Shown one piece after another: positions 4,410-56,363 of a stretch of DNA of 64,000 bases; the first letter of the stretch is position 1, and every line of letters begins with the position of its first letter. Made by a program: the position numbers and the translations under genes. A model generated the notes under the pieces. That model had not been told where the DNA came from, ran no database searches, and saw nothing but the letters and a program-made list of their open reading frames with translations. Source of the DNA: an uncultured Candidatus Saccharibacteria bacterium (GTDB taxonomy: Bacteria; Patescibacteriota; Saccharimonadia; Saccharimonadales; CAIOMD01); assembly GCA_964566135.1 (NCBI GenBank), contig CAZMHM010000001.1, positions 133,829 through 197,828 on the forward strand, in the 5' to 3' direction.

Positions 4410-6077
4410 CTAGTAGGGTTTCGCAACAACAGTAGCCGAATATTCGCTGTGGATATCATCAGCAGTAGAACTTGTCCCTTTTGTATCGATAGCTCGTAAC
4501 TGAACATCATATGACACACCGTTTTGTAGGCCGCTTACAGTAGAGGACAAGTTAGTTGTGCGTCCCGGATATATCCATGCCGAACCATCAGATTTGTTTG
4601 GACTATCAGAACGAATGTAGCGTGGGCTGTATACATCAACGCGATTATCCGTAGACTTTGTCCAAGAAAGGGTAAACTTACCACTCCCAGACACAACTTT
4701 GACATTTTGCGGTACTAGGATTGCACCGGCAACGGGTACTGCCGTTATTGGTGCTGCATAATCACTGCCAGTCGTTTTGCCAGTTGAATCGCGTGCAGCA
4801 ACAGAAAATTCGTAGGTTTGACCGTTCGTTAGCCCAGAAACAACATAGCTATTGGTGGTTGGGTTTGTAGAACCAGGGTTATTAGAATAGTTTGTCCATG
4901 TACCATTTTGACCCCAGCGAACAGTATAGTTGTTTGCACCCGCCACGGCGTTCCATGTTAGCGACACCGAGCCATTGCTCGCAACAGCTTTTAAGTTAAT
5001 TGGTGTTACCAGCTTTGCAGCAGCGGTAGGCGTTGGGGTTGGTGTTACGACAGGGTCAGGAGTTGTTGTCTTGGTGTAAACACGTACGTAGTCAACTTCG
5101 TAGGTAGAAGGGAAGCCAGCTCGCAAAATACCACTCGCATTACACGGTTGTGCTCCACCGTATGGCTGCAAACACTTGCCAGTATACCGGCTGTAGCCAA
5201 GCGCATCATCAGGATGGCCAACATACGTGCCACCAACAGCCATGTTAAGGGCAATATCAAACGCATTAGCATATTTGGTAAATTGGGATTTATCCGTCTC
5301 AGTATATTGGAAATAGGTAAGGCCGTCTAATTGCCAGCTAATTAAGATACCAGCACTTGTGTCTTCGGTAGTTACAGCCCATGTATGCCATCCAGGTGTG
5401 GCAGTTGGCGTCTCAAAGGCGACTGATTTTTTAGCAACATTGTGCACATTGTTGTAATGAAGCGTGCCGGTAGTTTTACCAGGAACTGTTGCGTGGAAGT
5501 ACTCCATAATGTCAATTTCTGCCATTGATGCTCCGTCTTTGTGTCGCAACCAGAAAGCAGGCCATAAGCCTTGGCCATGTGGTAGCTTAGCGCGCATTTC
5601 GTATTTTGCATACGCAGGGAAATACTTGCCATTTGCCGTAGCTGCAGAGCCAGTGCTACCAACAGAACGTGTCGCTATAAATCCAGACGTAAACGAACGG
5701 TGCTTAGATGCATCACCCATACAATTTATTTCTTCGCGCTTAGAGGTGATTTTGAGCGTTCCGTTAGATACGGCAACGTTATTAGGAGTAGAGCATTCTT
5801 CTTCTTTATTGCCATCACCATAAGTATTGTTGTAGACACCCCAGGTATTAGCATCAAGGCTTGTCCCATTAAATTCATCAGACCAATACAACGTCCAAGA
5901 CGTTGCAGCCGAGCTAGTTCTAAGTAACCAAGCACCGGCTATCCCAAACACTACTACTGCAATAATAATTATCGGCACCTTGTTGCCTAGTAGCTTTTGC
6001 TTTAGTTTTTGGGCGCCGCTAACGGATTGTTTTTTTGTTGATTTTGGCACGTTAGTTTTCCGTTTCTTATTATTCAT
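4410..6077 (-). CDS. secreted glycoside hydrolase family 16 (beta-glucanase/laminarinase-like) with two C-terminal FN3 domains
   Basis: N-terminal signal anchor. GH16 catalytic ExDxxE (AEIDIMEY). WSDEFNG motif. Two repeats of about 90 aa (LTWNAV..YTVRW ; LSWTKS..) typical of FN3. Confidence 0.8.
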   Translation of the reverse strand: MNNKKRKTNVPKSTKKQSVSGAQKLKQKLLGNKVPIIIIAVVVFGIAGAWLLRTSSAATSWTLYWSDEFNGTSLDANTWGVYNNTYGDGNKEEECSTPNNVAVSNGTLKITSKREEINCMGDASKHRSFTSGFIATRSVGSTGSAATANGKYFPAYAKYEMRAKLPHGQGLWPAFWLRHKDGASMAEIDIMEYFHATVPGKTTGTLHYNNVHNVAKKSVAFETPTATPGWHTWAVTTEDTSAGILISWQLDGLTYFQYTETDKSQFTKYANAFDIALNMAVGGTYVGHPDDALGYSRYTGKCLQPYGGAQPCNASGILRAGFPSTYEVDYVRVYTKTTTPDPVVTPTPTPTAAAKLVTPINLKAVASNGSVSLTWNAVAGANNYTVRWGQNGTWTNYSNNPGSTNPTTNSYVVSGLTNGQTYEFSVAARDSTGKTTGSDYAAPITAVPVAGAILVPQNVKVVSGSGKFTLSWTKSTDNRVDVYSPRYIRSDSPNKSDGSAWIYPGRTTNLSSTVSGLQNGVSYDVQLRAIDTKGTSSTADDIHSEYSATVVAKPY

Positions 6078-6200
6078 ATTTTTTGTTGTAATTATTTACA
6101 CTTACTTAACACCAATACATCCGGTTCGTCAAGTAACCATGAGGGTTTTTAATTACTAAAAAAGGTGCAAATCAAAAAGATGTGTTTCTTGCTTCTAGCG

Positions 6201-6554
6201 CTAAATAGTCATTGTGATTTTTGCAGGATGTTGCGCAGGGAACATTCCGCAGTGCATTACTACACGCGAGCCAAGAAGTCCACCCAGCCGTTGTTTGCGT
6301 ACTTCTACGGGGCCATCGCACGTATTTGCCTGTGCTTCTACTGATTTAAACGCATAATATGGCATTTCGCTATTAATCGTACTGCCGCTTATATATACGG
6401 TAATTTTGTTAGTCTGAGCTTCGTCTGCTGCTTTAAAAAACTGCCGAAACTCAGCATCTGATTCAAAAGTAAAATCGCTATATGGTTCGCCTTCTAAGAC
6501 GCCCTTAGCGAATGGGCAGCCGGGACAAAAATTAACGTATTCAGGGTCAGACAT
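6201..6554 (-). CDS. hypothetical Cys-containing protein
   Basis: 117-aa ORF with AAAGGA upstream. Contains CPGCP and further Cys residues. No family recognised. Confidence 0.5.
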   Translation of the reverse strand: MSDPEYVNFCPGCPFAKGVLEGEPYSDFTFESDAEFRQFFKAADEAQTNKITVYISGSTINSEMPYYAFKSVEAQANTCDGPVEVRKQRLGGLLGSRVVMHCGMFPAQHPAKITMTI

Positions 6555-6639
6555 ACCATTATCCTTTCAGAATAATTTCAATAACCCGATTATCTGTTAG
6601 CTATAAGCCTAATGCAAGCTTGAGCGGATCATAAAAATA

Positions 6640-6760
6640 GCTCAAATATGAGGGATTCGACCTTGAAGGCAAAAGAAAAATACTTTTGCCAATGCAACCC
6701 TTCGGGTCTTAGGCGGCCAAAGCCCACTGGGCTTTGTCGTTCGATATCCCTTTCTGAGCC
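6640..6760 (-). ncRNA. candidate structured RNA / 5' leader, class unassigned
   Basis: Terminal pairing GCTCAGAAAGGGAT (6759-6746) with ATCCCTCATATTTGAGC (6656-6640) encloses three local hairpins. These are an 8-bp CAAAGCCC/GGGCTTTG at 6718-6736, GACCC-GAA-GGGTT around 6696-6708, and an 8-bp GGCAAAAG/CTTTTGCC at 6668-6690. A G-T wobble in the terminal stem favours the minus strand. Confidence 0.3.
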
Positions 6761-6762
6761 AC

Positions 6763-6787
6763 GAAAAAACCACCCTCACAGGTGGTC
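6763..6787 (-). terminator. rho-independent terminator after tRNA-Gln
   Basis: Minus strand reads ACCACC-TGTGAG-GGTGGT followed by TTTTTT. Confidence 0.6.
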
Positions 6788-6793
6788 TTATCG

Positions 6794-6868
6794 TGGCTGG
6801 GGATGAGGGATTCGAACCCCCGAATGCATGGACCAAAACCATGTGCCTTACCACTTGGCCAATCCCCA
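6794..6868 (-). tRNA. tRNA-Gln (anticodon TTG), CCA encoded
   Basis: TGGGGATTGGCCAAGTGGTAAGGCACATGGTTTTGGTCCATGCATTCGGGGGTTCGAATCCCTCATCCCCAGCCA. Cloverleaf checked by hand. Anticodon loop TTTTGGT. T-arm GGTTCGAATCC. Confidence 0.9.
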
Positions 6869-6962
6869 ATAGTGCTGCTCATTTACATATTAATGTCTGT
6901 CGACGTTTTGATCCATGAGCATGGACCGCCTAAACTATTTTGTTGTCACAAGCGACAACTGG

Positions 6963-6988
6963 CATGTGCCTTACCGCTTGGCCAACCC
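6963..6988 (-). repeat. duplicated 5'-half fragment of tRNA-Gln (no T-arm or 3' acceptor; not a functional tRNA)
   Basis: catgtgccttaccGcttggccaaCcc is near-identical to 6840-6865 (D-arm plus the 5' anticodon stem). The downstream sequence cannot complete a cloverleaf. Confidence 0.6.
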
Positions 6989-7005
6989 TTGATAAAGGCT
7001 ACAAA

Positions 7006-7034
7006 ATTATACCTTTTTTAACCGTTTTAGCCAA
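7006..7034 (-). promoter_or_regulatory. sigma70-like promoter reading into the tRNA fragment and tRNA-Gln
   Basis: Minus strand TTGGCT-N17-TATAAT (-35 at 7034-7029, -10 at 7011-7006). Confidence 0.5.
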
Positions 7035-7041
7035 GCGCTAA

Positions 7042-7893
7042 TCAGATAACAATCAACGCAACACCAATAAAACACAAAACTGCTGCTAGTAATTTGCGCC
7101 CTATCCGGTTGCGTTCTGGCTTTAGCAGTACCAAAGCAAGCAGCACCGTAATAACAATGCTCGTTTGCCGTAGCGGCGATACCAATGTTAACGTGCCATA
7201 TTTATAAGCAAATAACATCGTCGTGGACCCAATCGCATAAAAAAGCCCAAGTAACAGCAAGCGTGTCAGCGTTTCGCCCTTTAGCATAGGCCGTATCTTT
7301 GTAATTGCGCTTGGCCGTACTAATAGCGATACTAGTGCGCCGCCATAAAAACTGATTGCCGCCCACGTTACGGTATCGGTATGCCTGCCAACATAGGCGG
7401 TGCAGGTAATTGCAATTCCGTACAGCAAACCCGTTAATAACCCATATAACGTACCTTTATCGAGTTTAAGTTTACGAATGTTTTTTATAAGTAGCGTCAC
7501 ACTCGCAAAAATTAATAGCGTGCCTGCTATCTGTAGCGAAGTAATGCTCTCGTTAAATAGCACCAAGCCCAAAATCATAATCCACACAGCTTGGGTTGCA
7601 AACAAAACAGAGAACGCCGATGCCTCAACATATTGTAGTGTTTTGGCATACACCACGGTGCCAAGGCCAAAGAACACAATACAAATTGTAGCCACGAGCC
7701 ATACCGTACCGAGCCCGGCAAAGCTAATACCGTTATATAGCGCAAAGATAGTAATAATAACTGCGGTTATAAGCTGAAACAGGGCAGAATACGCAACCGG
7801 ATCTGCCTTGTTTTTGTGCAACAAAATACGCTGTAGCACTACCGAAACAGATAGCCCAAGCACGCTAATTGCGGTATATAGTTGCCATGTCAT
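7042..7893 (-). CDS. EamA/DMT-family transporter (10 TM)
   Basis: Start moved to ATG 7893 (the track start is TTG). Two repeated 5-TM halves typical of EamA. Confidence 0.7.
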   Translation of the reverse strand: MTWQLYTAISVLGLSVSVVLQRILLHKNKADPVAYSALFQLITAVIITIFALYNGISFAGLGTVWLVATICIVFFGLGTVVYAKTLQYVEASAFSVLFATQAVWIMILGLVLFNESITSLQIAGTLLIFASVTLLIKNIRKLKLDKGTLYGLLTGLLYGIAITCTAYVGRHTDTVTWAAISFYGGALVSLLVRPSAITKIRPMLKGETLTRLLLLGLFYAIGSTTMLFAYKYGTLTLVSPLRQTSIVITVLLALVLLKPERNRIGRKLLAAVLCFIGVALIVI

Positions 7894-8716: not shown

Positions 8717-10342
8717 ATGCCAAAAGTACTAATAGCTCTGTTAGGTGCGTTTATTGCGCTTTCGTGTGTAGTACTTTTTTATACCGTCAACCAGACGCTC
8801 GCAGTTTCAGGGCCTACACCCGTTTGTCCGACAGGGTTCTACACCATCATAAATAATAATACTTCTGCTACTACCACAACCGCTCAAACAGTAACAGGAA
8901 TAGCAAACGTTATGTTTGCTACAAGCACTAATAATGCATCAACTATTTCTCGGGTAGCAATTTTAGAAAACGGTACTCCAATAGGTATAGCAAAGCCTGC
9001 AAATAGCTCCTCCTGGACAATGCCATGGGCAACAGCGCTTTCGGCCAACGGTGCGCAAACCTTACAGTCACAAGTGTTTATGTCTAGTGGCGCATCTTGC
9101 GTAACAGCTCCATCACTGGTTAACATCCAAAATCCCGTTGGGGCTAATTTAGTAATCGTAACGCAACCCCCAAGTTGGACTGGCCCCTTAAGCTTCAGTA
9201 TCCCCATCACCAGCAATATTCGTGTGCAAGAGCTCAATTTTGATGTTACGCCGTATGCCATTTACGAATATAGTACGAGCATCGGAAGCATTACGCCGAA
9301 CGGGCCAAACGCACAATATTTTTCTGGCAACCAAACTGGGTCCGGCACAATAGCGATTCGTGCCATATATGGCGGAAAAACCATAAACGCTAAGATTCCC
9401 GTAACCGTCGCAAGTGCCACAGCACCGTTACCAGCACCTACGACTTCATCAAGCGGCTCAGGGAGCAATTCGTCAGGTACCGGTACATCCGGAAGCTCTA
9501 ATACACAAACAACTTCTGCAAGCACGCAACCAGCACCAACAACAGCTACGGGTACTTCGCAACTACAGCAAACAACTGTCGCGGCCCGAACAGCCGTACT
9601 CGCAAATAATACCTCAGCACAGGATTGTGCCGTTACAGCACTTGGAAAAGATCGGTTTGAGGCCATCAATAGTGGGAATGTACGCCCTAGTACCGAAGAA
9701 CTAAAAAAATTAAACGCATGTTTTGCTAGTAGCAACTTTATTCTGCCTTCAAACTTTGCTCCTGTTGCGCCCAATGCACTGAAATCCCTCGTCAGCAGTA
9801 ATGATCTAAAAATCGAAAAACTCACTAACGATAAAATTACGCTTAACAGTTCAAAAAAAGATGCCCTTAAAATTACCGGTAAGGCCAAACCAAACAGCGC
9901 TGTTATTCTATACGTTTTTTCCGAACCGCTAGTGCTCACTACTACTGCCGATGCAAATGGCAACTGGACGTATTCGCTGCAAGATCCTATCGAATCAGGC
10001 AAGCACGAAGTCTACGCCGTGGTAGACCGAGGCGATGGTACGTATCAAAAATCTGATCCCTTTAACTTTGTCATCGGTACTGCTCAGGCTGCCGCAGAAA
10101 ATCCAAATAAGTTAAGCCTTACACTTGCAGCCGAACCAACGCCTGTACAAACTAATCGCAGCCTTTTGCTATACATAGCTGGCGCCGTGCTCATAGTAAG
10201 CCTGGTTATCATTATCACGCTGGTTATCCTTATTCGCTCTCGCCGAAAACCTCCTACACCACCGGCAAATATGCTGCCACCCGATGCGCCAGCACCACCA
10301 ACAACTCCAACAATGTACATGCCGCAGAACCCGCAACAATAA
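8717..10342 (+). CDS. large surface protein with Ser/Thr-rich linker, C-terminal TM anchor and Pro-rich tail
   Basis: Start at ATG 8717 behind GGGGGA. N-terminal signal anchor. Low-complexity SSSGSGSNSSGTGTSGSS region. C-terminal TM followed by RSRRKPPTPP. Confidence 0.65.
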   Translation: MPKVLIALLGAFIALSCVVLFYTVNQTLAVSGPTPVCPTGFYTIINNNTSATTTTAQTVTGIANVMFATSTNNASTISRVAILENGTPIGIAKPANSSSWTMPWATALSANGAQTLQSQVFMSSGASCVTAPSLVNIQNPVGANLVIVTQPPSWTGPLSFSIPITSNIRVQELNFDVTPYAIYEYSTSIGSITPNGPNAQYFSGNQTGSGTIAIRAIYGGKTINAKIPVTVASATAPLPAPTTSSSGSGSNSSGTGTSGSSNTQTTSASTQPAPTTATGTSQLQQTTVAARTAVLANNTSAQDCAVTALGKDRFEAINSGNVRPSTEELKKLNACFASSNFILPSNFAPVAPNALKSLVSSNDLKIEKLTNDKITLNSSKKDALKITGKAKPNSAVILYVFSEPLVLTTTADANGNWTYSLQDPIESGKHEVYAVVDRGDGTYQKSDPFNFVIGTAQAAAENPNKLSLTLAAEPTPVQTNRSLLLYIAGAVLIVSLVIIITLVILIRSRRKPPTPPANMLPPDAPAPPTTPTMYMPQNPQQ

Positions 10343-10352
10343 GGAGTAAGCC

Positions 10353-11675
10353 GTGAGAAAAGAAAAACTCGAAATTATATATTCAATCGGCATTATTATT
10401 GCGATACCACTGCTTATCGTCGTAAACACGGTATATTTAGTCCGTTCAACGCGCAGCGCGTTTAACACCGAGCTTCGCAAAAAGGCTGATCTTGTTAATT
10501 CTGTTTTGGCGGATTCACTGCAATCAGACATTAATCAAAAGAACTATACACAGCTCACCACTCGCCTTAGTACGATTGAAAAAAATCAGCCCGACATTAC
10601 GCAAGCAACAATCATACAGCAACAAAACGGAACGCCAGTAATCATTGCACGGGCGCCCGACGCATCTAAAGAACTCAACGCTACATCAAGCGTGCAGACA
10701 AAGATTGTTTATGATCGTAAAGTTCCCGTTGCCAAACTTGTAAATGTAACGTCAGACGGCCAAACTCAGCAAGGCTGGAATGTTGCTACTCCTGTTCTTG
10801 ATGCAAACAACACTGTGCTCGCCGTAGTAAGTAGCACCGTACTCACAACCAATGCAGAGCAATCAATTAACACTGCCTTTACTCGATCATTCATCTTAAT
10901 GATAGTAAGCATCATTGTAATTATTGTGCTGCTATTCAGGCACTTCCGTCTCGTTGGTTACATTCAGCTACTCGCCAAGCAACGTGAAATCAATCAGACC
11001 ATGAGCGACTTTTTATCTGTAGCGACCCATGAGCTTAAGGCTCCAACGACGATTATTAAAGGCTATATTGCAAATGTAATGGACGGAACATCAGGGCCGG
11101 TTTCAAATGATATTAAAGAGCAGCTTCAGGTCGCACTTTCGCAAACCGATAGACTCAATAATTTGGTGCAAGATTTGCTTAATGTCAGCCGGGTAGAGCA
11201 AGGAAGAATTGAATACCATATAGAAAACGTCGACAGTACAAAAATAATCGACGTAATTGTGCATAATTATCGACCCATCGCTAGCCAAAAAGGCTTAGAA
11301 CTCATCTTTGAAGCCTCCACTTCGCCACTGTTTGTTCGTGCAGATGCTGGTCGCGTACAAGAAATCTTTACTAACCTTATCGATAACGCCATAAAATACA
11401 CACCATCGGGTAGCGTGACCATTACGCAGAAACTCGACGGCTCTAAGGTTAAAACCAGTATTCGCGATACTGGCCTTGGCATGAGCCCAGAAAATCGCAA
11501 GCGACTGTTCCAGCGCTTTTATCGTGTTAAGACAGAACAAACCAAAGATATTAGTGGCACCGGCCTCGGTTTGTGGATTATCAAACAGTATATAGAGGCA
11601 ATGGGTGGCACTATCGAAGTCAATAGTACCGAAGGCGACGGCTCGGAATTTATCGTTGTGCTACCAATAATGTAG
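10353..11675 (+). CDS. sensor histidine kinase (orphan; no adjacent response regulator)
   Basis: GTG start behind AAGGAG. HisKA H-box SVATHELKAPTT. HATPase N/G boxes DNAIKYTP and GTGLGLWIIKQYIEAMGG. Two TM helices flank an extracellular domain. Confidence 0.85.
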   Translation: MRKEKLEIIYSIGIIIAIPLLIVVNTVYLVRSTRSAFNTELRKKADLVNSVLADSLQSDINQKNYTQLTTRLSTIEKNQPDITQATIIQQQNGTPVIIARAPDASKELNATSSVQTKIVYDRKVPVAKLVNVTSDGQTQQGWNVATPVLDANNTVLAVVSSTVLTTNAEQSINTAFTRSFILMIVSIIVIIVLLFRHFRLVGYIQLLAKQREINQTMSDFLSVATHELKAPTTIIKGYIANVMDGTSGPVSNDIKEQLQVALSQTDRLNNLVQDLLNVSRVEQGRIEYHIENVDSTKIIDVIVHNYRPIASQKGLELIFEASTSPLFVRADAGRVQEIFTNLIDNAIKYTPSGSVTITQKLDGSKVKTSIRDTGLGMSPENRKRLFQRFYRVKTEQTKDISGTGLGLWIIKQYIEAMGGTIEVNSTEGDGSEFIVVLPIM

Positions 11676-11764
11676 TTGCGGGGCGTGTGGCGTGGTTATA
11701 CACTAGCTATTTGCAAACATAAAATTGTACCAGTGTTACACAATATCAAGTTACAATAGTAGCA

Positions 11765-14700
11765 ATGGATTTCGAGGCAAATTATAAACAGCTAAACGCT
11801 GCACAAAAGCAGGCGGTTGATACTATCGATGGCCCTGTGCTTGTTGTGGCGGGCCCTGGCACGGGTAAAACACAGCTACTAGCCCTCCGGGCGGCGAATA
11901 TCTTGCAAAAAACAGATACAGCCCCACAAAACATTCTGTGTTTAACCTATACCGAGGTCGGTGCGCGCAACATGCGCGAACGACTCACAAGACTTATTGG
12001 CCAGGCTGCATACGATATCCGTATTAGCACCTACCACGGTTTTGGTAGCGATATCATCCGCCAATATGGCGAATATTTTAATGAGTTCACAGCCGAGCAG
12101 CCAGTAGATAAACTTGGCCAAGACGCCATATTACAAGAGATTTTTACCAAGCTACCCGCCAGCAACCCATTATGGCGTGCAGATGTGTACCTAAAAGATG
12201 CCCTGGGCTTTATTAGCGAATGTAAACGCGCTTTACTAACTCCAGATGACATTCGCACCATAGCAAACAGTAACCAGGCATTCATAGATACTGCCAGCGA
12301 CATCACCAAAACAACAATCCCACAATTTGCACGCATGAACAAAGAAGTCGGCGGGGCATTTGTTACGCTGCTAGAAAAACTAAAACCACTTATCAGTAGC
12401 GAGACACTTCCCAGCACTATTCAGCCCTTGGCAAATTTGTGTGTACAAGATTTAGTGCTAGCAATTGAGTTTTTTGATGAAACCGGCAAAACTAACGAGC
12501 TCACAATATTTAAGAACAAATGGCTCGCCAAAAACGCCGACAACCAATGGGTACTAGCAGGCCAGCGCGATGTTAAAAAGATGTTGGGCGGGGCAGACAT
12601 TTACGAGATGTACCTGCAAGCGCTCACCGATAAAAAGCTGTTTGACTACGACGACATGATTACCCGTGCAATTAACGGGCTCGAGCAACACGATGAACTC
12701 CGCTACAGCCTACACGAGCAGTACTTATATGTCATGCTGGACGAATTCCAAGACACTAACCGAGCGCAGTTAAAGCTCGTAGAGCTACTTACCAATAACC
12801 CAGTCCAAGTGGGTCGCGCCAATATTTTAGCAGTGGGCGACGACGACCAAGCGATTTATAGCTTTCAGGGTGCCGAGCTCACTAACATGTTGCGTTTTAC
12901 CCAAATGTATAAAGATGTACAGGTCATAACGCTAACCGATAATTACCGTTCGCACAGTGATATTTTGCATACCGCCCACACCATTGCCGGCCAAATAGAA
13001 GAACGCCTCAGCGACACTCTTGGTACGGGCGAAAAGGTGTTAACCGCAAAAAATGCCAACCTGCCAAATGCAGTCGTTAGCCGTCAACAATTTAAGAGTG
13101 ATATTGCCCAGTTCGATTGGATAAGTGGCCAAATCGCCAAACTTATTACGCAGGGCACAAAGCCATCCGAAATAGCAGTACTCGCACCTAAACACCGCTA
13201 TATAGAACCACTAGTGCCATATCTACAAGCACGAGACATCCCCATACGGTATGACAAGCGCGAAAACGTGCTCGAAGACCAACATATCGTAGAGCTTTTA
13301 AACATGGCCCAGTTGGTGCTTGCTATAGCCAATAGCGAACATGCGCTTGCCGATAGTATTTGGCCAAGTGTGCTTAGTAGCAGTTACTGGCAATTGCCAA
13401 CCAGCACTATTTGGCAACTAAGCTGGCAGAGTTACGAAAACAAAGTTAAACGAATAGAAACGGGCCACTGGCAGGCATTAATGATGGCAGATGAAACACT
13501 CAAGCCAATTGGTCTGTTTTTTGCACGCTTATCGCAAATTGTTAATGCCGATACGCTCGAAACCATGTTCGATTACCTAGTAGGCGTGCAGCCCCTAGAG
13601 CTCAACGAGCCAGATCTACCAACGTACACATCACCATATTACGACTATTACTTTGGCCAAAAAGCCCGCACCACATCGCCACAAAGTTTTGCGCAGGTAC
13701 TCAGCAACCTTACGGTGTTACGCCAACATGTGCGAGAATACCGCCGTGATGCCGACAGGCCACTAGTACTACAAGACCTTATAGATTTCGTAGCCGATTA
13801 TCGCAATGCAGACGAAAAGCTGTTAAATACCAGCCCGTACCACAGCGCCGATAACGCTGTGCAACTTATGACCGCGTATGGATCTAAAGGCTTAGAGTTC
13901 GATGTTGTATTTGTGCTTGCCGTGCAAGACGAGGTATGGGGAATGAAGGCCCGCGGCAAAAACAATATTATTACCTTGCCGCCAAACCTAGCAATTATCC
14001 GCAATGCTGGCAGTACTAAAGACGAAAAAAAGCGCTTGTTTTACGTTGCCATTACCCGCGCGAAACACAGCTTGTATTTAACAAGTTACAGCCAAAATTA
14101 CAGCGGTAAAGCTACCGAAGCACTCGAGTTCTTAAACGAATCAGATGGCAAAGCTATGGCGTTACCAAGCCACGCACAAACCGTACAGTCTAACGATAGT
14201 GACGTACCAGCCATAGAGGCTTTGCAACACTTTTGGACCACGCGACACGCCGAGGGTGCCCATACTGCCAGCTTGCGCGATTTAGTGCTGCCACGGCTCG
14301 AAACATTCCAGCTGAGCGCCACACACGTAAACACCTTTACCGATCTTATATACGGCGGGCCCGAGGCATTCTTTATTAATACCGTACTAAAGTTCCCTAA
14401 AGCGCCTACCGCCGATGGCCAATATGGTAATGCCATCCACGAAACGCTAGAGGCTATGCAACATGCCCTACGGCGCAATGGCGAGCTACCCGATGTAGAC
14501 GAAGCAATTGCCTTATTTACCGAAAAGCTTAAAAACAAGCGCCTAAGCGAGGCCGAATTTACACGCCACCAACAGCGTGGCGCGTTAGCACTGGCAGAAT
14601 TCATTCCGCAGTGGTGGCATAACTTTACTCCAACTGCCCATAGCGAGTTTGATTTTAGGCAAGAGGGCAGTTTTGTAGGCGACGCACACCTCAGTGGTAA

Positions 14701-16210: not shown

Positions 16211-16561
16211 ATGTATAAACACTACAAACTCTACCTTATCGCTAGCATCATAGTAGCTATTTGCATGGTGGCCGGCGCTAGCTATTACAAATTTGGCCAT
16301 AGCCAAGCAGATACGCACGATTTAGCCGTGTACGATGCCAAACAGCTTGCCGTATACAACGGTAAAAACAACGCCCCTTGTTATGTTGCAATAGATAAGA
16401 CCGTGTACAGCGTAAAACAGGGCGATTTATGGAAAGAGGGCGAACACACCACATCTAACCAGCAAGCCTATTGCGGGCGTAATTTAACAGATGTAATTGG
16501 CAAATCTCCGCATGGCCGCTCTAAACTTGCCACGCTTACCATCGTGGGTACGTACAAATAA
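16211..16561 (+). CDS. membrane-anchored cytochrome b5-like heme/steroid-binding domain protein (COG4892-like)
   Basis: Starts 2 nt after the previous stop. Pattern L..YNGKN..P.YVA....VY.V......W..GEH....G..LT......PHG. Confidence 0.65.
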   Translation: MYKHYKLYLIASIIVAICMVAGASYYKFGHSQADTHDLAVYDAKQLAVYNGKNNAPCYVAIDKTVYSVKQGDLWKEGEHTTSNQQAYCGRNLTDVIGKSPHGRSKLATLTIVGTYK

Positions 16562-16625
16562 TTGTTTTGTAAAATATTTATTGCTGTATTACAATTTCAT
16601 TAGCACGCAAAAACAAAAACAAAAA

Positions 16626-17189
16626 ATGAAGCGAAAAACAGTAAATAGTAGATATATTCGTGCACACCGTTTAATATTGGTGTCGCTTGGCATGCTCTTT
16701 GTCAGCGGTATCGTAGCCGGTGCGTTTTTGTTTACGAACCAAAAAGGCTCAATGCCTACTGCTTATGCTGCACCCGCTGTCATTCAGCCGCAAAACGCCA
16801 CATCTGTTGCTGCACATGGCCCAGTTGATCCAAATGCATTTAGCATTAAAAATGTTACCCTACAGGGCACATCGTGGTCTTGTATAAGTGGCAAAATGGT
16901 CATGCATATAGAAACCGCAACGGTTAACGCGGCATCTAAGCTTGGTGGCACCTATACGTGGCGCATCGAAAAGCAAAACGCACAAGAATCATACACATCA
17001 AGCGAACGTACCGTTACTATGCGCACCAACGAAACATCTAGCGTTCTTGGCGCAGATGAAGAATCCGGCTACTTTTACTCAGCACTCGACGCCAAGCCAG
17101 GCGAAATTGTACGCGTACATGTTACCAGCCCCAACAGCACCTATTCTGCCGCATTCGGCATTCCCGATAGCGCCACCTGCCCACAGTAA
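16626..17189 (+). CDS. secreted hypothetical protein; paralogue of 20510-21163 (shared C-terminal two-Cys domain)
   Basis: Start moved to MKRKTVN (ATG 16626), followed by a TM/signal segment. The C-terminal roughly 115 aa align with 20510-21163 (GG..TW, GY.Y....AK.G..[VI]RV...SPN..YS....IP.....C). Confidence 0.6.
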   Translation: MKRKTVNSRYIRAHRLILVSLGMLFVSGIVAGAFLFTNQKGSMPTAYAAPAVIQPQNATSVAAHGPVDPNAFSIKNVTLQGTSWSCISGKMVMHIETATVNAASKLGGTYTWRIEKQNAQESYTSSERTVTMRTNETSSVLGADEESGYFYSALDAKPGEIVRVHVTSPNSTYSAAFGIPDSATCPQ

Positions 17190-17232: not shown

Positions 17233-17613
17233 ATGATTGAAGTTTTAGACTACAGCGCGACCGAAACACAGGTCACACCCGATATCCGTGCACTAAGTAT
17301 ATTTGCAAACCAGCCCCAAGGGCTTTTAACGATTAGCCGTATCGCAGCCGTAATCTACGGCGGTACTAACAAGGCACAGCTCGTAGAGCTTGTTAATGCG
17401 GTATTAGATATAGAAACACCGCAAACGCCAGCTATCGATATCCTTAAACTTGGCGAAGTGCTAGAGCGCGTAGAATCATTTGCACATGCTTCTGGCGGGC
17501 TTGTTTTGGCAAGCTTTCAAGATGATGCGCCTACCGAACTTGTAACCAAGCTCGATCCATACGTGGTTGCCGGCGGTAGCACCTCAACCGAAAACATCGG
17601 TTTTTACTTGTAA
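17233..17613 (+). CDS. hypothetical protein
   Basis: 126-aa ORF of native composition. No motif recognised. Confidence 0.5.
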   Translation: MIEVLDYSATETQVTPDIRALSIFANQPQGLLTISRIAAVIYGGTNKAQLVELVNAVLDIETPQTPAIDILKLGEVLERVESFAHASGGLVLASFQDDAPTELVTKLDPYVVAGGSTSTENIGFYL

Positions 17614-17635
17614 CACTAACACCATAAATGGTTGC

Positions 17636-17666
17636 GGCCCCGCCCGATGATGTATCGGGCGGGGCC
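17636..17666. terminator. 13-bp perfect GC hairpin between convergent genes (islet A 3' end)
   Basis: GGCCCCGCCCGAT-gatgt-ATCGGGCGGGGCC. No clean U-tract on the minus strand. TTGTGGTTG follows on the plus strand. Confidence 0.6.
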
Positions 17667-17687
17667 TTGTGGTTGGGGGGTGGTGGG

Positions 17688-18251
17688 CTAGGCGTTGACG
17701 ACGATGACCGTCGTTCCGACCTCTGCCCACTTGTACAGCGCGGCTGCCTGTGCGAGACTCTTGAGTCCCACGCAGCCGTGGCTGTACCGGTAGCCGGCGG
17801 CGTACTCCGAGCTGTAGTGGATGCCCTGACCGCCGCTGAACGGCATGAAGTAGGGCATCTTGACGTGGTACAGGGTGCTGACCTTGCTCACGTACTTAGC
17901 GAAGATCCGATAGATCCCACGCCTGGTAGGCCAAGGGCCCGTACCATCGCTTGCGCGGTGGATACCCTCGGCACCATGACGTGCCGCCATCTTCATGATG
18001 GGCTTGTGGTTCTGCAGGGCAACCAGCTGCCACGACTTGATGCCGACGCAGATGACCTTGCCGTGCTTGCCGTTGTAGTTCCGGCACACGCTGGGAACCC
18101 AGCTGGGCATGGTCACTGCACTTGCTGTCGCCTTGACGGCGGTCGTAGTGCGCTGCGGGGAAACAGACGCACCGTTAGCGGGGAGGGCAACGAGCATAAG
18201 GCTCGCCACCAGTAGTGGCGCTATCGCCACCCACTTATGCCTCATCATCAT
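17688..18251 (-). CDS. secreted L,D-transpeptidase (YkuD domain), in GC-rich islet A
   Basis: Signal peptide MMMRHKWVAIAPLLVASLMLVALPANG. Catalytic motif SHGCVGL. Strong G/C at third codon positions. RBS GGAAGGA. Confidence 0.8.
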   Translation of the reverse strand: MMMRHKWVAIAPLLVASLMLVALPANGASVSPQRTTTAVKATASAVTMPSWVPSVCRNYNGKHGKVICVGIKSWQLVALQNHKPIMKMAARHGAEGIHRASDGTGPWPTRRGIYRIFAKYVSKVSTLYHVKMPYFMPFSGGQGIHYSSEYAAGYRYSHGCVGLKSLAQAAALYKWAEVGTTVIVVNA

Positions 18252-18284
18252 ATCCTTCCGGGTAGTTGACGTTTAGGCTAAATT

Positions 18285-18313
18285 ATTATACTGCTTAGAC
18301 TCAATTTATCAAA
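18285..18313 (-). promoter_or_regulatory. sigma70-like promoter for the islet A gene
   Basis: Minus strand TTTGAT-N17-TATAAT in AT-rich DNA directly upstream of the GC-rich ORF. Confidence 0.45.
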
Positions 18314-19040
18314 CTTTATAGCCTTTAAAACTATAGAATCCTTTTTCTGATATCTTTTTATAGTAATAGATATACTTTGGATGTGGGACATAAAACATAT
18401 GCTTCGACGGACCTGGCACAACTATTTCTATCGCCGCCCGATGCTTGCATGCCTCAAACATTGCGCTAGGCAACTCGTACGGCATCCCCATAAAGGACTT
18501 TTTTGCGTCATTTGCTAGCTTCCATTTTTTTATTACATCAGTTGCGTGATCAAGCCTAGCAACCATTACTGCCTTGGGCATAATGTCATAGTGTTTGTAC
18601 ACAATAGTATTGTCTAGTTTTTGTATGTATTTTTTGATATGCGCTGCAAGTTCGACAGGGCCTATCGGTTCATTATATTTGTCGTAGTCTTCGTCACCCG
18701 GTTTTGACCATGGTGGCCTAACATCTGGGTCTCCGCCAAGTAAATCAGAATATTGTCGAGCCCAATGCACACCGAATAAGTCTTCGTCTTCTACCGGAAA
18801 CAACAAGCATTGACTATGGAAGATTTTATATGGGGCAGGTTTCATCACATATTGTTTAAATTCTTGTATGTCTTCTAGCGTACTGTCGTAGCTATTCCCC
18901 GAAACTACAAAGCTCGACATAAATACATTCACGGGCTTCAAGCCATCACTGTCTAGGGCATGTAAGGGTGTAAAGTGCAGCCTATTGCCATCTTCTTGAT
19001 ATTCAATCGCAATAGTCGCTGGCGTTTCTTGTATACTCAT
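18309..19040 (-). CDS. hypothetical protein
   Basis: Start moved to MSIQETP (ATG 19040). 243 aa, native composition. Confidence 0.55.
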   Translation of the reverse strand: MSIQETPATIAIEYQEDGNRLHFTPLHALDSDGLKPVNVFMSSFVVSGNSYDSTLEDIQEFKQYVMKPAPYKIFHSQCLLFPVEDEDLFGVHWARQYSDLLGGDPDVRPPWSKPGDEDYDKYNEPIGPVELAAHIKKYIQKLDNTIVYKHYDIMPKAVMVARLDHATDVIKKWKLANDAKKSFMGMPYELPSAMFEACKHRAAIEIVVPGPSKHMFYVPHPKYIYYYKKISEKGFYSFKGYKV

Positions 19041-19121
19041 AACCACATAATACTCCAGCACTAGCCGGAACAAAGTACTTAAACAATTCTTTAATAATCA
19101 ATAAAAGGGTACAGTTTATAC

Positions 19122-19526
19122 ATGCAAACAAAACAATCCATCTTCCGCACTATGTTAGTTGGCACGCTACTATACACCGTAGTTATCGGCTTTTTTAACG
19201 ATTACACAAACATACTACACACTCGCAGTTACTCTATTACGTTTGCGCTCGCTATTGTTTTACAGATTCTTACATATATAACGTTCGAGATTAAAAAATG
19301 GGTTGTTAAAAAATCGAAAAAGTTTGCTGGCCCCAAAGGCAAGTTCGCTCTTATCTTTGGCGTTTGGCTAGTACTGTTTTTAAGTAAGTTTGTATTTTTA
19401 TGGGCAATTGGCGTGGTGTTTAAAGATTCTGTAGAGCTCACAGGCTTTATAAACATCTTGGTTGTAGTGGCAAGCATGACACTTGCGCAACGGCTGTTGC
19501 AATATATTGATACTAAGCTGGCTTAG
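19122..19526 (+). CDS. hypothetical membrane protein (about 4 TM)
   Basis: 134-aa ORF with four hydrophobic segments. Confidence 0.55.
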   Translation: MQTKQSIFRTMLVGTLLYTVVIGFFNDYTNILHTRSYSITFALAIVLQILTYITFEIKKWVVKKSKKFAGPKGKFALIFGVWLVLFLSKFVFLWAIGVVFKDSVELTGFINILVVVASMTLAQRLLQYIDTKLA

Positions 19527-20252: not shown

Positions 20253-20474
20253 ATGTGTAGAAGTATTAAAACTTTATATAACTACGAGCCGTCGGCCACC
20301 AATGCAGATATAGAGGCAGCGGCATTGCAATTTGTGCGCAAAGTATCTGGGTATCGCAAGCCATCAGCCGTAAACGAGGCAGCTTTTAACCAAGCCGTGG
20401 CCGATATCAGCCACGCCGTAGAGCATTTGCTTGGCAACTTGCACACGCACGCCGCCCCTAAAACCCGCGATTAG
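20253..20474 (+). CDS. DUF2277-family protein
   Basis: MCRSIKTLYNYEPSATNADIEAAALQFVRKVSGYRKPS matches the conserved DUF2277 N-terminus (MCRNI..L.N.EP.AT..EI..AALQ[YF]VRK[IV]SG) from memory. Confidence 0.65.
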   Translation: MCRSIKTLYNYEPSATNADIEAAALQFVRKVSGYRKPSAVNEAAFNQAVADISHAVEHLLGNLHTHAAPKTRD

Positions 20475-20509: not shown

Positions 20510-21163
20510 ATGAAGTTTCCTAAGAAGTTCTGGCTAATATTTGGGCCAGTACTTGGTGTGATACTTTTAGCCGCCATTGCAGGCGGTATTTTTGTATCGC
20601 ACAAAAAGAAACCTACAACCGCAGCCATCAATACTACTAGCACTTCGCAACAACAGACAGCGCAATCGCAAGCAAAAAACGAGCCCGTAAAACAAGATGC
20701 ACCAGCAAGTACGCCAACCGCAGAACAACCCAAGACTAGTACTAATCAAACAGGTTCGAGTGCTCCAAAAACGCCACCACCAGTTATTCCGCAACCATCC
20801 ATACCACCGTTTAAAATCACAAGTATTTCTATGAACGGGGCATTTTACTTGTGTTCTGGTGGAACAATCGTGACATACATTAGCTCGGTAACCTTTAATT
20901 CAAGTAATGCTCAGGGCGGTGCTGTTACTTGGGTGCTCGACGGAGAAAACGACATGGGCTCCGTTAGTTCCGATCCGCGCACCGATACCATCCCATACAA
21001 TCAAGTATCTATTACCGTCTCAGATTCAACGCCTGCGAATCCAGGCTATCTATATACCGATATGGAGGCAAAGCAGGGCGACCGTATACGCGTAAGAACC
21101 ATCTCGCCCAATGCTGCTTATTCTAGCTGGCTACAAATCCCAGCCGACTACGTTTGTAATTAA
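20510..21163 (+). CDS. secreted hypothetical protein; paralogue of 16626-17189
   Basis: N-terminal TM/signal segment, then a Thr/Pro/Gln-rich linker, then the shared C-terminal two-Cys domain. Confidence 0.6.
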   Translation: MKFPKKFWLIFGPVLGVILLAAIAGGIFVSHKKKPTTAAINTTSTSQQQTAQSQAKNEPVKQDAPASTPTAEQPKTSTNQTGSSAPKTPPPVIPQPSIPPFKITSISMNGAFYLCSGGTIVTYISSVTFNSSNAQGGAVTWVLDGENDMGSVSSDPRTDTIPYNQVSITVSDSTPANPGYLYTDMEAKQGDRIRVRTISPNAAYSSWLQIPADYVCN

Positions 21164-30335: not shown

Positions 30336-30698
30336 TCATCGGGTCGGCAGCATGCGCCACCAGTGGTACGGACCGTTGTAGTCCATGTTGCAGACATCCA
30401 CCTTCATGAACGTGTCGTTCTTGCGGGTGGGGATGGCCGGGACGAACTTGTCGCCGATGCAGTCGGTGTTGCCGTTGCCGGTGTGGTGCTTGCCGGTGTC
30501 GTCGACGAGTGCAGCGTGGATTCCCACCTCGCCACAGGCGCAGTCGACACAGCGCAGGTACGTGTGCTCGAGCACCTTGCCGTAGCAACGCCACAGCTTG
30601 ACGCCGGTCTTGCCACAGTTCCCGCAGACGTAGCTGCTGGGGACGGTGTTCTGGGTGTAGTCGACCGGCTCAGCCGGGTTAACTACCTTGGCCACCAT
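30336..30698 (-). CDS. GC-rich islet B: Cys-rich (zinc-ribbon-like) hypothetical protein, 120 aa
   Basis: GGAG lies 8 nt upstream of the ATG. Codon position 3 is almost always G/C. CGNCG...C..C.C motifs. The other three overlapping ORFs lack an RBS. Confidence 0.65.
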   Translation of the reverse strand: MVAKVVNPAEPVDYTQNTVPSSYVCGNCGKTGVKLWRCYGKVLEHTYLRCVDCACGEVGIHAALVDDTGKHHTGNGNTDCIGDKFVPAIPTRKNDTFMKVDVCNMDYNGPYHWWRMLPTR

Positions 30699-32963: not shown

Positions 32964-33008
32964 AAAATAAAAAAAGGCGGGGGAGCGGGCTGCATCCGCA
33001 GCCCGCCC
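32964..33008 (-). terminator. GC hairpin plus T-run terminator of the islet C gene
   Basis: Minus strand GGGCGGGCTGC-GGAT-GCAGCCCGCTCCC, then CCGCC TTTTTTTATTTT. Confidence 0.65.
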
Positions 33009-33028: not shown

Positions 33029-33283
33029 TTACGGCTGAGCCGGCACAGCAGCGAGTGCCTTGAACTGCAGAAGCGAGTAGTCGATCCAACCAGGGTCGAA
33101 CCCGTACTCACTCTTGATGCAGTTCCTGAACGCCATTGCGACGTTCTTCTGGTAGTTCTCCTCGCCGGCCCTTGCTCGGGCGAACGAGTTGTCGTTGATG
33201 CGCATGCGCCCGATCGTCAGACGACGAGAACGCATGGACACTTCGTACACGGTACTGGCACCTCTCGGCAACCAAACCACCAC
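33029..33283 (-). CDS. GC-rich islet C: hypothetical protein (up to 84 aa; start uncertain)
   Basis: GC3-rich frame ending 20 nt before the terminator hairpin. An alternative internal start exists at MRSRRLTIG. Confidence 0.5.
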   Translation of the reverse strand: MVVWLPRGASTVYEVSMRSRRLTIGRMRINDNSFARARAGEENYQKNVAMAFRNCIKSEYGFDPGWIDYSLLQFKALAAVPAQP

Positions 33284-33418
33284 CTTACTGTAAAGTGCCC
33301 AACAATCTGCTGAGACAACAATACAGTATAATATTTAGTACTTTTTTGCAATTATAACTTGCCGAAACTAATTAACTATGTTAAATAAGTTGTAGTCCTC
33401 TAGTGTCAGGAGAATGTC

Positions 33419-33745
33419 ATGGCCCAGCGTAGCACTGGAAGCTACCACGCAGGGTTCTTGCGTGGTAAGGGCACGATGCTGTTCGACGACGAAGTGCTGC
33501 TCGAACTGCAGCACCCACGCCAGATGCACGTACGCCGTGCAGCAACCACCAGCAACGGGATCAGCGGGTGCATGCTGACCTGCGAGCTCGGCTCGGCGAC
33601 GGCGATTCCGTTCTTTGTACCGGACGCCGACGAGGTGCGCTACAAGGCGCTCAATCTTGCGCACTACATCGAAGGCCTGCAAGACGGCATCATGCGGCGT
33701 GCAACCGAGCTGAAGAGCAAGCGCATTCGTCAACTCGGCGCCTAA
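33419..33745 (+). CDS. GC-rich islet D: hypothetical protein, 108 aa
   Basis: CAGGAG lies 8 nt upstream of the ATG. GC3-rich. A terminator follows. The opposite-strand ORF 33368-33748 has neither an RBS nor a terminator. Confidence 0.6.
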   Translation: MAQRSTGSYHAGFLRGKGTMLFDDEVLLELQHPRQMHVRRAATTSNGISGCMLTCELGSATAIPFFVPDADEVRYKALNLAHYIEGLQDGIMRRATELKSKRIRQLGA

Positions 33746-33764
33746 CATTCCAACACTGAGGACT

Positions 33765-33802
33765 CCCGGGCGGCTATCGCTGCCCGGGTTTCTTCATTTT
33801 TT
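33765..33802 (+). terminator. rho-independent terminator of the islet D gene
   Basis: CCCGGGCGGC-tatc-GCTGCCCGGG (one G-U pair) followed by TTTCTTCATTTTTT. Confidence 0.7.
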
Positions 33803-33906
33803 GCATACGCTACCTAAATACTAATTACTAATAATACTTGGGTAGAGCCCCGTCTGGGCGGACCGCTGGATGCGATCTGCCCGAGACGGGAAGCCCTGGG
33901 GTGGTA

Positions 33907-34332
33907 CTACGCGGCGACGTTGCCGGCGATGCAGCTCCGGATGGTTCCGGGCACTGCGTCTTCGGTGAAGTCGACGTGCTCGATGAACGTGTGCTGTGCC
34001 TCGCGGTACGGCTTCTTCCAGCGCCGGATGACGTGGCGCCCCACCTTCGACTTCTTGAAGTAGTCGGGGTTGTTGGGATTGCGAACCACGACGATGGCGA
34101 TGAACGTCCAGTCGGTGACGACCAGGAAGCGCTCGCCTTCGACGCTGTCCTGCGCCGGATCGAGGCTCTTGATGCCGTCGGTCTCGACGTAGATCGTGTC
34201 GCACGTGTTATCGCCGGGGCTGGGCCAGCACTCGACGACGTAGAAGGGCGCTGCCGACTTGTGCAGGGTTACGTCCTCGTTGCTGACGTTGATGCGCTTG
34301 GCCATGTAACGCTCGAGCTTGTGTCGTTTCAT
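33907..34332 (-). CDS. GC-rich islet E: hypothetical protein, 141 aa
   Basis: GGGGGG lies upstream of the ATG. GC3-rich. An imperfect GC hairpin follows the stop, within 33852-33893. Confidence 0.6.
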   Translation of the reverse strand: MKRHKLERYMAKRINVSNEDVTLHKSAAPFYVVECWPSPGDNTCDTIYVETDGIKSLDPAQDSVEGERFLVVTDWTFIAIVVVRNPNNPDYFKKSKVGRHVIRRWKKPYREAQHTFIEHVDFTEDAVPGTIRSCIAGNVAA

Positions 34333-34376
34333 TGTCCCCCCAGGGGTAGTGCCTGCAGGGTAGCAGACGAAATTTC

Positions 34377-34405
34377 ACTATACAACGTCGTAAAGACAAG
34401 TACAA
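34377..34405 (-). promoter_or_regulatory. sigma70-like promoter for the islet E gene
   Basis: Minus strand TTGTAC-N17-TATAGT. Confidence 0.45.
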
Positions 34406-34480
34406 GCATGAGCACCATAGACATTCCAATATTATAATAATTATGGTAAAATATATTTTTTATAAACCGCACCACCAATA

Positions 34481-38693: not shown

Positions 38694-39050
38694 GTGATTG
38701 ATTTGCATCGATTGAAGGACATCCGTGAGGCCCATGGTCTCACTGTCGCAGATCTGGCGGAACTGTCGGGCATCGCGCCCAGCACCATCTTCCGGATCGA
38801 AAGCGACGACAACTGGTACAAGGTGAACGAGGTCACAGCAGAGGCACTGGCGAGCGCGCTTTACAAGAGCGTGCTGGACATCTTCAACAGCCGTGAACTC
38901 AGCCACCTTGGGCGACCGCCACACACAGGGAGGCCATGTCATGAAGCCGAGAGATTCAGCAACCGGACGACCTGTCCGTCATGCCACCTCGAAGTTCTCA
39001 AGGCAGCCACCTGCAACGAGTGCGACGCGCCGCTCACCATGTCGGCCTAG
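38694..39050 (+). CDS. GC-rich islet F: XRE-family HTH regulator with C-terminal Cys4 zinc-ribbon-like tail
   Basis: HTH LTVADLAELSGIAPSTIFRIE. C-terminus CPSCH...CNEC. GC3-rich. GTG or TTG start. Confidence 0.7.
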   Translation: MIDLHRLKDIREAHGLTVADLAELSGIAPSTIFRIESDDNWYKVNEVTAEALASALYKSVLDIFNSRELSHLGRPPHTGRPCHEAERFSNRTTCPSCHLEVLKAATCNECDAPLTMSA

Positions 39051-39101: not shown

Positions 39102-39164
39102 TTCTCCACATTACGACTTATGTTATACTGCTAATGCAGAAAAATTCTGCAGAGAAGAACTCTT

Positions 39165-39195
39165 AAAAGCCGCTCTTAAAATCAGAGCGGCTTTT
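39165..39195. terminator. bidirectional rho-independent terminator
   Basis: AAAAGCCGCTCT-taaaatc-AGAGCGGCTTTT. Confidence 0.65.
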
Positions 39196-39255
39196 ACTTT
39201 TTAAAATGCCTATGCTTGCATACCTAGCACCGTTTGCATACAGTATCCCGTAACT

Positions 39256-56353: not shown

Positions 56354-56363
56354 TATACTCACG

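Follow-up and report, generated by a model that had tools for sequence, protein, structure and literature searches.

A GC-rich gene in a Saccharibacteria contig encodes a predicted secreted L,D-transpeptidase of a lineage-restricted family

The window analysed here is a stretch of 64,000 nucleotides (nt) from a contig of an uncultured Candidatus Saccharibacteria bacterium (CAZMHM010000001.1), and positions are counted from its first letter. On the minus strand, an open reading frame (ORF) at 17688-18251 encodes a protein of the YkuD family of L,D-transpeptidases (Ldts), and it lies in a GC-rich transcription unit, termed islet A. Within this well-known enzyme family, the protein is a lineage-specific variant. 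Overall, the gene probably encodes a secreted YkuD Ldt that is specific to Saccharibacteria and of old Actinomycetota descent, is carried in a resident unit, and is GC-rich as a trait of its family. An earlier sequence-only reading of this DNA had proposed a foreign, host-like origin. A recent import is contradicted by nearest homologues from Saccharibacteria, by synteny, and by a synonymous divergence (dS) of 0.8-2.0, whereas the named relatives and the nesting in a neighbour-joining (NJ) tree agree with a deep ancestry in Actinomycetota. That reading had named nearest homologues of the same lineage and of similar GC as evidence against its proposal, and such homologues were found, with a gene GC of 58-62%.

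Gene, protein and structural model

The ORF 17688-18251 (minus strand, stop codon TAG at 17690-17688) has 187 amino acids when counted from the first of three tandem ATGs. The third ATG (18245) is the probable start, as judged from the sequence, since it has the best Shine-Dalgarno spacing (GGAAGGA, 18253-18259, 7 nt upstream) and since P0001, a 99%-identical protein, was gene-called with 185 amino acids. Homologous loci and contigs are cited here by L numbers and homologous proteins by P numbers, and residues are numbered in the 185-residue form unless the 187-residue ORF is stated. In an exact-sequence look-up, the 187-residue ORF had no record, and the 185-residue form of a relative is on record. 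The gene is intact and under purifying selection, with a nonsynonymous divergence (dN) of 0.005 against a dS of 0.023 in the comparison with L019 (dN/dS about 0.2). Greedy longest-ORF calling selects an antisense ORF (17628-18215, plus strand, 195 amino acids) over the real YkuD gene; this ORF was dismissed as a by-product of high GC, as it has no family match and the Pfam match is on the minus strand.

The protein matches the Pfam YkuD profile (PF03734) with E=2e-15 and 58.1 bits against a cut-off of 23.4, over profile positions 2-146 of 146, and the match places the catalytic domain at 17700-18059 (minus strand; residues 65-184 of the 187-residue ORF). It is the single YkuD protein in the window. 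The active-site motif S155-H156-G157-C158-V-G160-L (SHGCVGL) is at 17763-17783 (minus strand), and the catalytic-partner His143, at 17819-17817, precedes Cys158 by 15 residues, within the 14-17 expected of a YkuD enzyme; this His and the S, H, G and C of the motif are invariant among 57 aligned sequences. A pair of cysteines, C54 (18086-18084) ahead of the domain and C66 (18050-18048) at its entry, is at least 90% conserved, Actinomycetota relatives included.

By inspection, residues 1-25 (18171-18245, minus strand) have the features of a Sec signal peptide, in which an n-region MRHK is followed by the 19-residue hydrophobic core WVAIAPLLVASLMLVALP and then by A-N-G/A, the slash marking the cut in LPANG/AS. 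Lipobox, second transmembrane segment, LPXTG motif, peptidoglycan-binding domain and other wall-anchoring domains are all missing from the sequence features of the protein. Export is expected to go through the Sec pathway, and signal peptidase I would cut the protein at about residue 25. The gene product had earlier been described as a secreted YkuD enzyme with the motif SHGCVGL, and the profile match, the motif and the features of the signal peptide all point the same way.

The structure predicted by AlphaFold2 from the 57-sequence alignment has a mean pLDDT of 88.8, with block means of 53-73 for residues 1-40 and of 92-98 for residues 41-185. When the PDB was searched with Foldseek, the top match was 5bmq, a YkuD protein of Stackebrandtia nassauensis (E=1.5e-10, root-mean-square deviation (rmsd) 2.1 A, 28% identity), followed by Mycobacterium LdtMt1, LdtMt2 and Mab2 and by a Xylanimonas enzyme; the best 50 of the 70 matches with E<=1e-3 are all Ldts. 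When the PDB was searched by sequence, 5bmq again came first (E=2.7e-8). By this model, the product is a small single-domain Ldt of the YkuD fold with a complete His/Cys core, and its activity is predicted.

A family found so far only in Saccharibacteria

The YkuD gene belongs to a small family that is known to date from Saccharibacteria alone. Among 5.8 billion protein clusters, a word-indexed search returned 16 relatives, and a profile search returned about 40 clusters of short (150-200 amino acids), single-domain proteins above 165 bits, after which there is a gap in score. An exhaustive HMMER scan of 1.84 billion representatives yielded 4,486 YkuD relatives, 17 of them at E<1e-30. Outside the family, no homologue above about 45% identity was found in either of these two collections. 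A scan of GTDB (185,579 species genomes, one per species) identified eight loci, all eight of them in metagenome-assembled genomes (MAGs) of Saccharibacteria, Saccharimonadales or Saccharimonadia, and 14 further family loci came from a scan of metagenomes. The metagenome scan found no further contig of the window's species, so the 3' junction of the islet is known from the window contig only.

Several features set the family apart. Characterised Ldts have Asn or Arg at the second position after the catalytic Cys (consensus SHGC-h-N/R). The window protein departs from this consensus with Gly160. Of 41 family members, 39 have Gly at this position, whereas 204 of 229 relatives from outside have Asn. 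Another feature is a conserved loop, ASDGTGPW(x)TR, between the first long strand and the core, which is missing from the Actinomycetota enzymes and may correspond in its location to the active-site lid of known Ldts. The PG_binding_1 domain has been lost in most members, and it is kept in P0020 (from a 37% GC genome, near rpsI). Another member, P0013, looks like a lipoprotein (...LATAC...).

Descent from Actinomycetota

Beyond the gap in score, every match with a named organism is from Actinomycetota, namely Kribbella (including Kribbella deserti) or Kribbellaceae, Luteococcus, Streptomyces, Actinacidiphila, and Nanopelagicales. Actinomycetota is also the host phylum of the cultured Saccharibacteria. 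One relative from outside the family has a native composition in its contig, which is 73% GC. In the NJ tree, rooted with divergent YkuD proteins as outgroup, the family forms one clade in 161 of 200 bootstraps and branches within the Actinomycetota-type proteins, which are themselves monophyletic in only 5 of 200 replicates. An ancient transfer of the family from Actinomycetota to Saccharibacteria is reasonably likely from these sequence comparisons.

The Actinomycetota relatives usually carry PG_binding_1 in front of YkuD, and these two-domain enzymes are the closest to the window protein outside the family, both in sequence, at 31-42% identity and about 110-130 bits, and in structure (5bmq). 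They share with it the Cys pair ahead of the domain and the pattern ARxG...TRxG...MPY..F.GGQ.(I/V)HYS...SHGC. In contrast, the window protein lacks PG_binding_1, has Gly for Asn at Cys+2, and has the inserted ASDGTGPW loop; moreover, the two-domain enzymes are from genomes of about 70% GC, while the family of the window protein occurs in Saccharibacteria genomes of 34-58% GC. The similarity to the mycobacterial LdtMt1 and LdtMt2 is more general: they share the YkuD fold, with a TM-score on the query of about 0.55, an rmsd of 1.7-3 A and 19-24% identity, as well as the His/Cys core. LdtMt1 and LdtMt2 form 3-3 cross-links and are carbapenem-sensitive; unlike the window protein, they are much larger, multi-domain (Ig-like) and membrane-anchored, and they have Asn at Cys+2.

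Base composition of the gene and of its family

The GC content of the YkuD ORF is 61.5%, with 0.55, 0.49 and 0.80 at the first, second and third codon positions (GC1, GC2 and GC3), in a window of 45.0% GC. Native ORFs have a mean GC3 of 0.426 (sd 0.09), so the gene stands at z=+4.2. The flanking genes have 47.5% and 41.2% GC, and the promoter region has 18-36%. The sequence-only reading had given about 67% G+C for the ORF, which is too high, as only single 50-nt windows reach 68%; its claim that the composition is non-native agrees with both GC3 and codon choice. The codons used include AAG in 12 of 12 cases, CAG in 5 of 5, TAC in 9 of 10 and AAC in 5 of 5, and TTA, TTG and GTA do not occur. 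Amino-acid composition was rejected as the cause: with native codon usage the same protein would reach just 49.6% GC (from 45%), against 61.8% observed, and therefore the excess is mostly a matter of codon choice.

The same excess is seen across the family. Among 21 distinct loci, the GC of the gene is 48-62% and that of the flanks 34-58%, and in 17 of the 21 the gene lies 5.8-28 GC points above its flanks (34-49%). The closest relatives (66-99% identity) have genes of 58-62% GC in flanks of 34-49%. The values for gene and flanks are 61.5% and 45% in the window, 60% and 45% in L007, 59% and 44.5% in L011, 57% and 39% in L018, 54% and 38.5% in L015, 54% and 37% in L038, 50% and 38% in L020, and 50% and 38% in L016. 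The gene is compositionally native solely in contigs of 52-58% GC, which are L014 and L017, both named Saccharibacteria, together with L021 and L029. GC richness with an Actinomycetota-like codon usage is thus a lasting property of the whole family and is no evidence of recent acquisition here; taken with the Saccharibacteria homologues, the synteny and the dS, the islet is a long-resident anomaly common to the family rather than a recent import.

Slow amelioration could explain the GC of the close clade (dS about 1), and it does not easily explain pairs like L020 and L022, which are syntenic, have saturated dS, and keep a GC3 about 0.2 above that of their genomes. Translational selection was not supported as the cause of the high GC3, because the gene in L008 (GC3 0.57) exceeds all 18 neighbouring ORFs, mostly for ribosomal proteins (mean 0.46, maximum 0.56). 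The excess might stem from exchange within the phylum with Saccharibacteria of higher GC as the source, from selection acting on the mRNA, or from GC-biased gene conversion at a locus that recombines. In the MAG that carries a 70%-identical homologue (L012/L001, about 4500-7800), three genes upstream of YkuD (219, 497 and 316 amino acids, with no Pfam matches) are also GC-rich, at 53-62% against about 44%, and YkuD there belongs to a larger GC-rich block.

Residence of the gene and exchange between strains

By sequence comparison, the window copy is old and long-resident. L019, an independent 1,045-bp ENA contig, carries the unit from the -10 box into the hairpin. Over these 656 nt (window positions 18295-17640) there are 9 mismatches (98.6% identity), and the contig stops at window position 17640, within the hairpin. 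Its other end matches the membrane-protein gene 19122-19526 of the window at 94% nucleotide identity. L019 thus shows that a relative at the level of strain or species has the cassette next to the flanking gene seen in the window. Between the cassette and 19122-19526, the window has an extra 796 bp (18296-19091) that is missing from L019, where 157 bp of unrelated sequence is found instead. The extra segment includes the ORF 18309-19073 (minus strand, 254 amino acids), which has native GC and no Pfam or PHROG match.

A more distant locus, L011 (from a Saccharimonadales MAG, a relative at family level), has the same order and orientation of an AddA-like helicase-nuclease (72% amino-acid identity to that of the window), YkuD (67%) and a small membrane protein (63%), with intergene distances larger than those of the window, in loose synteny. 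By these shared genes, the window is identified as DNA of a Saccharibacterium. L020 and L022 are mutually syntenic, with YkuD between uvrC...FAD-oxidase and LemA-M48-ligA, and L003, L008, L009, L010 and L038 place the gene near rpsI, L008 and L038 also near rsmB. The slot in L020 and L022, two low-GC genomes, is variable (about 9000-14000), as L022 has an rve integrase (6436-7452) and several unrelated small genes, and L020 has others. Among the window, L001, L007 and L011, synonymous divergence at identical residues is 0.8-2.0, and beyond this clade it is saturated.

The borders of the islet show no mobility signatures: no tRNA, integrase, target-site duplication or bordering repeat pair was found there, and the nearest tRNAs are at 6.8 and 62.4 kb. 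The ten genes around the islet gave no PHROG match, the YkuD protein had no tblastn match among 50,697 phage records or 72,556 plasmids, and a pattern scan of IMG/VR found no relative. Two paralogous membrane-anchored proteins, encoded at 16497-17189 and 20510-21163 (both plus strand), lie in direct orientation around a variable stretch of 3.3 kb that holds YkuD; they have 30% identity over 151 amino acids (E=7e-22) and share a C-terminal ...SPN..YS....IP....C.

The transcription unit

Islet A (17632-18295, minus strand) is a self-contained monocistronic unit, in which the gene is preceded by a promoter of its own and a short conserved leader and is followed by a GC-rich hairpin. Its 5' limit is the start of the identity to L019, and its 3' limit is the drop in GC at about 17632. 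The sigma-70-like promoter (18285-18313, minus strand) has a -35 hexamer TTTGAT (18313-18308) or TTGATA (18312-18307) and a -10 box TATAAT (18290-18285). Read as TTTGAT-N17-TATAAT or, equivalently, as TTGATA-N16-TATAAT, it has 11 matches in 12 positions, which makes it the top site among 18 in 12 kb; the total of promoter-like sites in these 12 kb is no higher than in shuffled sequences. The TGA stop (18311-18309) of the upstream ORF 18309-19073 falls within the -35 hexamer. The window and L019 versions both happen to give TTTGA(T/C) at the -35 position. The -10 box (A/T)AGTATAAT, about 45 nt ahead of the ATG, is kept in the window, L019, L007 and L011, and weaker forms, AGTATACT and AATATAAT, are found in L001 and L008. 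The 5' leader (18252-18284, minus strand) contains a motif GTCAAC (18270-18265) and the Shine-Dalgarno sequence GGAAGGA (18259-18253); (T/C)GTCAA(A/C) followed by a GGAGG-like Shine-Dalgarno sequence recurs in L007, L011, L008 and L016.

The hairpin (17636-17666) has arms at 17636-17648 and 17654-17666, with 13 perfect pairs and a 5-nt loop. In its 76-nt context, the folding energy is -35.6 kcal/mol (z=-5.6), and none of 200 shuffles is equally stable. It lies 21 nt past the YkuD stop and 22 nt past the stop of the convergent gene 17233-17613. It is likely a terminator, and possibly a bidirectional one, with a U-tract that is weak on both strands. Both the perfect 13-bp hairpin and the promoter overlapping the stop of the neighbouring gene had been pointed out in the sequence-only reading, and both are confirmed. 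Across the family, a hairpin of the type GGCCC(C)GC..., whose inner stem shows compensatory changes, is located 10-30 nt past the stop codon; two or three of the loci examined are exceptions. As the -10 box, the leader motif, the Shine-Dalgarno sequence and this hairpin recur across the family loci, the unit has been inherited as a whole.

Near the 3' edge of the islet, two imperfect copies of a direct repeat of about 33 nt (ACTTGTAAC...CCATA(C/A)(G/A)TGGTTGC) occur at 17538-17570 and 17606-17635, 68 nt apart. The first copy belongs to the 3' end of gene 17233-17613; the second runs across the stop codon of this gene, abuts the hairpin, and is in a different frame. The repeat may be the scar of a small duplication or of an old junction.

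Origin and function of the enzyme

The scheme held to be probable is as follows. The family would descend from Actinomycetota PG_binding_1+YkuD enzymes by an ancient inter-phylum transfer, after which its inheritance within Saccharibacteria, in variable parts of their genomes, would have been mainly vertical, with some exchange of alleles between strains. The product, once exported and cleaved, would be unanchored and soluble, in or beyond the wall of the monoderm epibiont. By analogy with known Ldts, Cys158, activated by His143, would attack a tetrapeptide stem at the bond that joins residue 3 to D-Ala4 and form a thioester, which would be resolved by the side-chain amine of another stem (giving a 3-3 cross-link), by a free D-amino acid, or by water. 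As to the target, the balance tips slightly towards the organism's own peptidoglycan.

Several points weigh against this scheme. The taxonomy is known for eight family loci, the remainder being metagenome contigs, and the scans of the collections used two short peptide patterns (family motifs), by which members can be missed. The nesting in the NJ tree is weakly resolved, as the tree has 116 sites, a distance method, and an outgroup of unknown taxonomy. Vertical descent with saturated synonymous sites should have erased the GC3 excess, yet the genes of L020 and L022 have a GC3 of 0.50-0.52 against about 0.30 for their genomes, a persistence of high GC for which the scheme does not account. The inheritance was not purely vertical, as shown by the lower dS of the cassette than of the flank between the window and L019 (0.023 against 0.147, from 3 and 7 changes, p=0.006; nucleotide divergence 1.4% against 5.7%, p=7e-4), which also hints at exchange. 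Finally, Gly at Cys+2 could mean an altered use of substrate or even a role other than transpeptidation.

Of the other origins considered, an assembly chimera, in which a contaminating high-GC fragment was joined to a low-GC contig, would account for the abrupt steps in composition, and its chance is close to nil, given that L019, from an independent ENA assembly, shows the cassette joined to the flanking gene as in the window and that members of the family are embedded in Saccharibacteria contigs of up to 448 kb from many studies. A recent horizontal acquisition from the current Gram-positive (Actinomycetota) host, with the DNA still unameliorated, would likewise fit the sharp GC borders, together with the codon usage, which is like that of high-GC Actinomycetota, and with the deeper relatives in this phylum. 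It is largely refuted and very unlikely: the closest homologues are all from Saccharibacteria, with none from elsewhere above about 45% identity in the two protein collections, relatives have the same flanking gene (L019, where YkuD has 99% amino-acid identity) or loose synteny (L011, 67%), dS within the clade is already 0.8-2.0, and the Actinomycetota enzymes have neither Gly at Cys+2 nor the ASDGTGPW loop. A third possibility, doubtful yet compatible with the favoured scheme, is that of a moron-like mobile cassette that moves or recombines among Saccharibacteria (e.g. by natural transformation), its GC excess stemming from a higher-GC pool within the phylum or from GC-biased gene conversion, beyond Actinomycetota ancestry alone. 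It is suggested by an autonomous unit that is conserved from the -10 box to the hairpin while the sequences outside differ, by the 98.6% identity of the cassette against 94.3% for the flank in the pair of the window and L019, by the different contexts of the close members L001, L007 and the window, by the native composition of the gene in L014, L017, L021 and L029 (52-58% GC), and by the integrase near the gene in L022. However, target-site duplications and mobility genes are absent from the islet of the window, the searches of viral contigs, phages and plasmids found no copy, synteny is kept within three groups of loci, and the contrast in dS rests on 3 against 7 substitutions. Phage morons are autonomous promoter-gene-terminator units of deviant GC inside prophages. 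Islet A resembles them in its own promoter, single ORF, strong hairpin, and composition unlike that of its neighbours, but it is outside any prophage. A prophage or moron origin in the strict sense was rejected, as no copy was found in the phage, plasmid and viral collections searched and as PHROG neighbours are lacking. With a classical genomic island it has in common the deviant composition and the location in a variable region between conserved genes; it differs in being a single gene without border integrase, tRNA or direct repeats, in having the same place in relatives, and in being old by dS.

With regard to function, an unlikely alternative is a host-directed effector, whose scaffold was captured from the host phylum and which diffuses to the host and remodels its peptidoglycan at the attachment site, by cross-linking, D-amino-acid exchange or L,D-carboxypeptidase trimming. 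The signal peptide without lipobox, transmembrane segment, LPXTG or peptidoglycan-binding domain, the loss of PG_binding_1 in most members, and the ancestry among Actinomycetota wall enzymes would all suit such a role, as would the patchy, accessory distribution in variable regions and the changes in the active site and loop, which suggest a changed substrate. On the other hand, it is ordinary for soluble secreted Ldts of monoderm bacteria to act on the wall of the producer itself, and the lipoprotein-like P0013 and the PG-binding domain of P0020 are as expected for enzymes held at the producer's surface. It also counts against this alternative that no paper linking Saccharibacteria with Ldts was found; on Saccharibacteria with YkuD or horizontal gene transfer, the literature searches gave nothing specific either. 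Still less probable is a combination of these ideas, according to which an Ldt captured from the host phylum was stripped to a free secreted domain, its active site was re-tooled (Asn to Gly at Cys+2, ASDGTGPW lid loop), it became an effector on host peptidoglycan, and its GC was kept by repeated exchange of the autonomous cassette between strains.

Other features of the window

More GC-rich islets are present at 30336-30698 (minus strand), 33029-34437, 38694-39050 (plus strand) and 55925-57069, with a GC3 of 0.62-0.88 against 0.41 for native genes. These are small ORFs without Pfam match, save for an XRE-type helix-turn-helix at 38694-39050, and most are edged by hairpins, either GC-rich (32985-33006, 55884-55913 and 57054-57086) or a conventional terminator (39164-39196). 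The protein of 30336-30698 has one homologue in the 5.8 billion clusters (39% identity), on a phage-like contig of 54% GC (L039, with a GH25 lysin and RlaP); these other islets have no match among GenBank phages. A DUF2277 protein (E=2e-32) is encoded at 20253-20474 (plus strand), 2 kb from islet A, with a mildly raised GC (50.5%, GC3 0.54).

Implications

For genome scans, the islet is a caution, since a sharp GC islet is here an old and stably placed gene. The 48-62% GC of the family, held in genomes of 34-58% GC despite saturated synonymous divergence, could be a test case for selection on GC or for biased gene conversion in reduced genomes. Little is known on how Saccharibacteria and other epibionts of the candidate phyla radiation build their own wall or manipulate that of an Actinomycetota host. 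This lineage-restricted family of predicted secreted Ldts, with its altered active-site motif, gives a clonable candidate for wall remodelling at the interface between epibiont and host.

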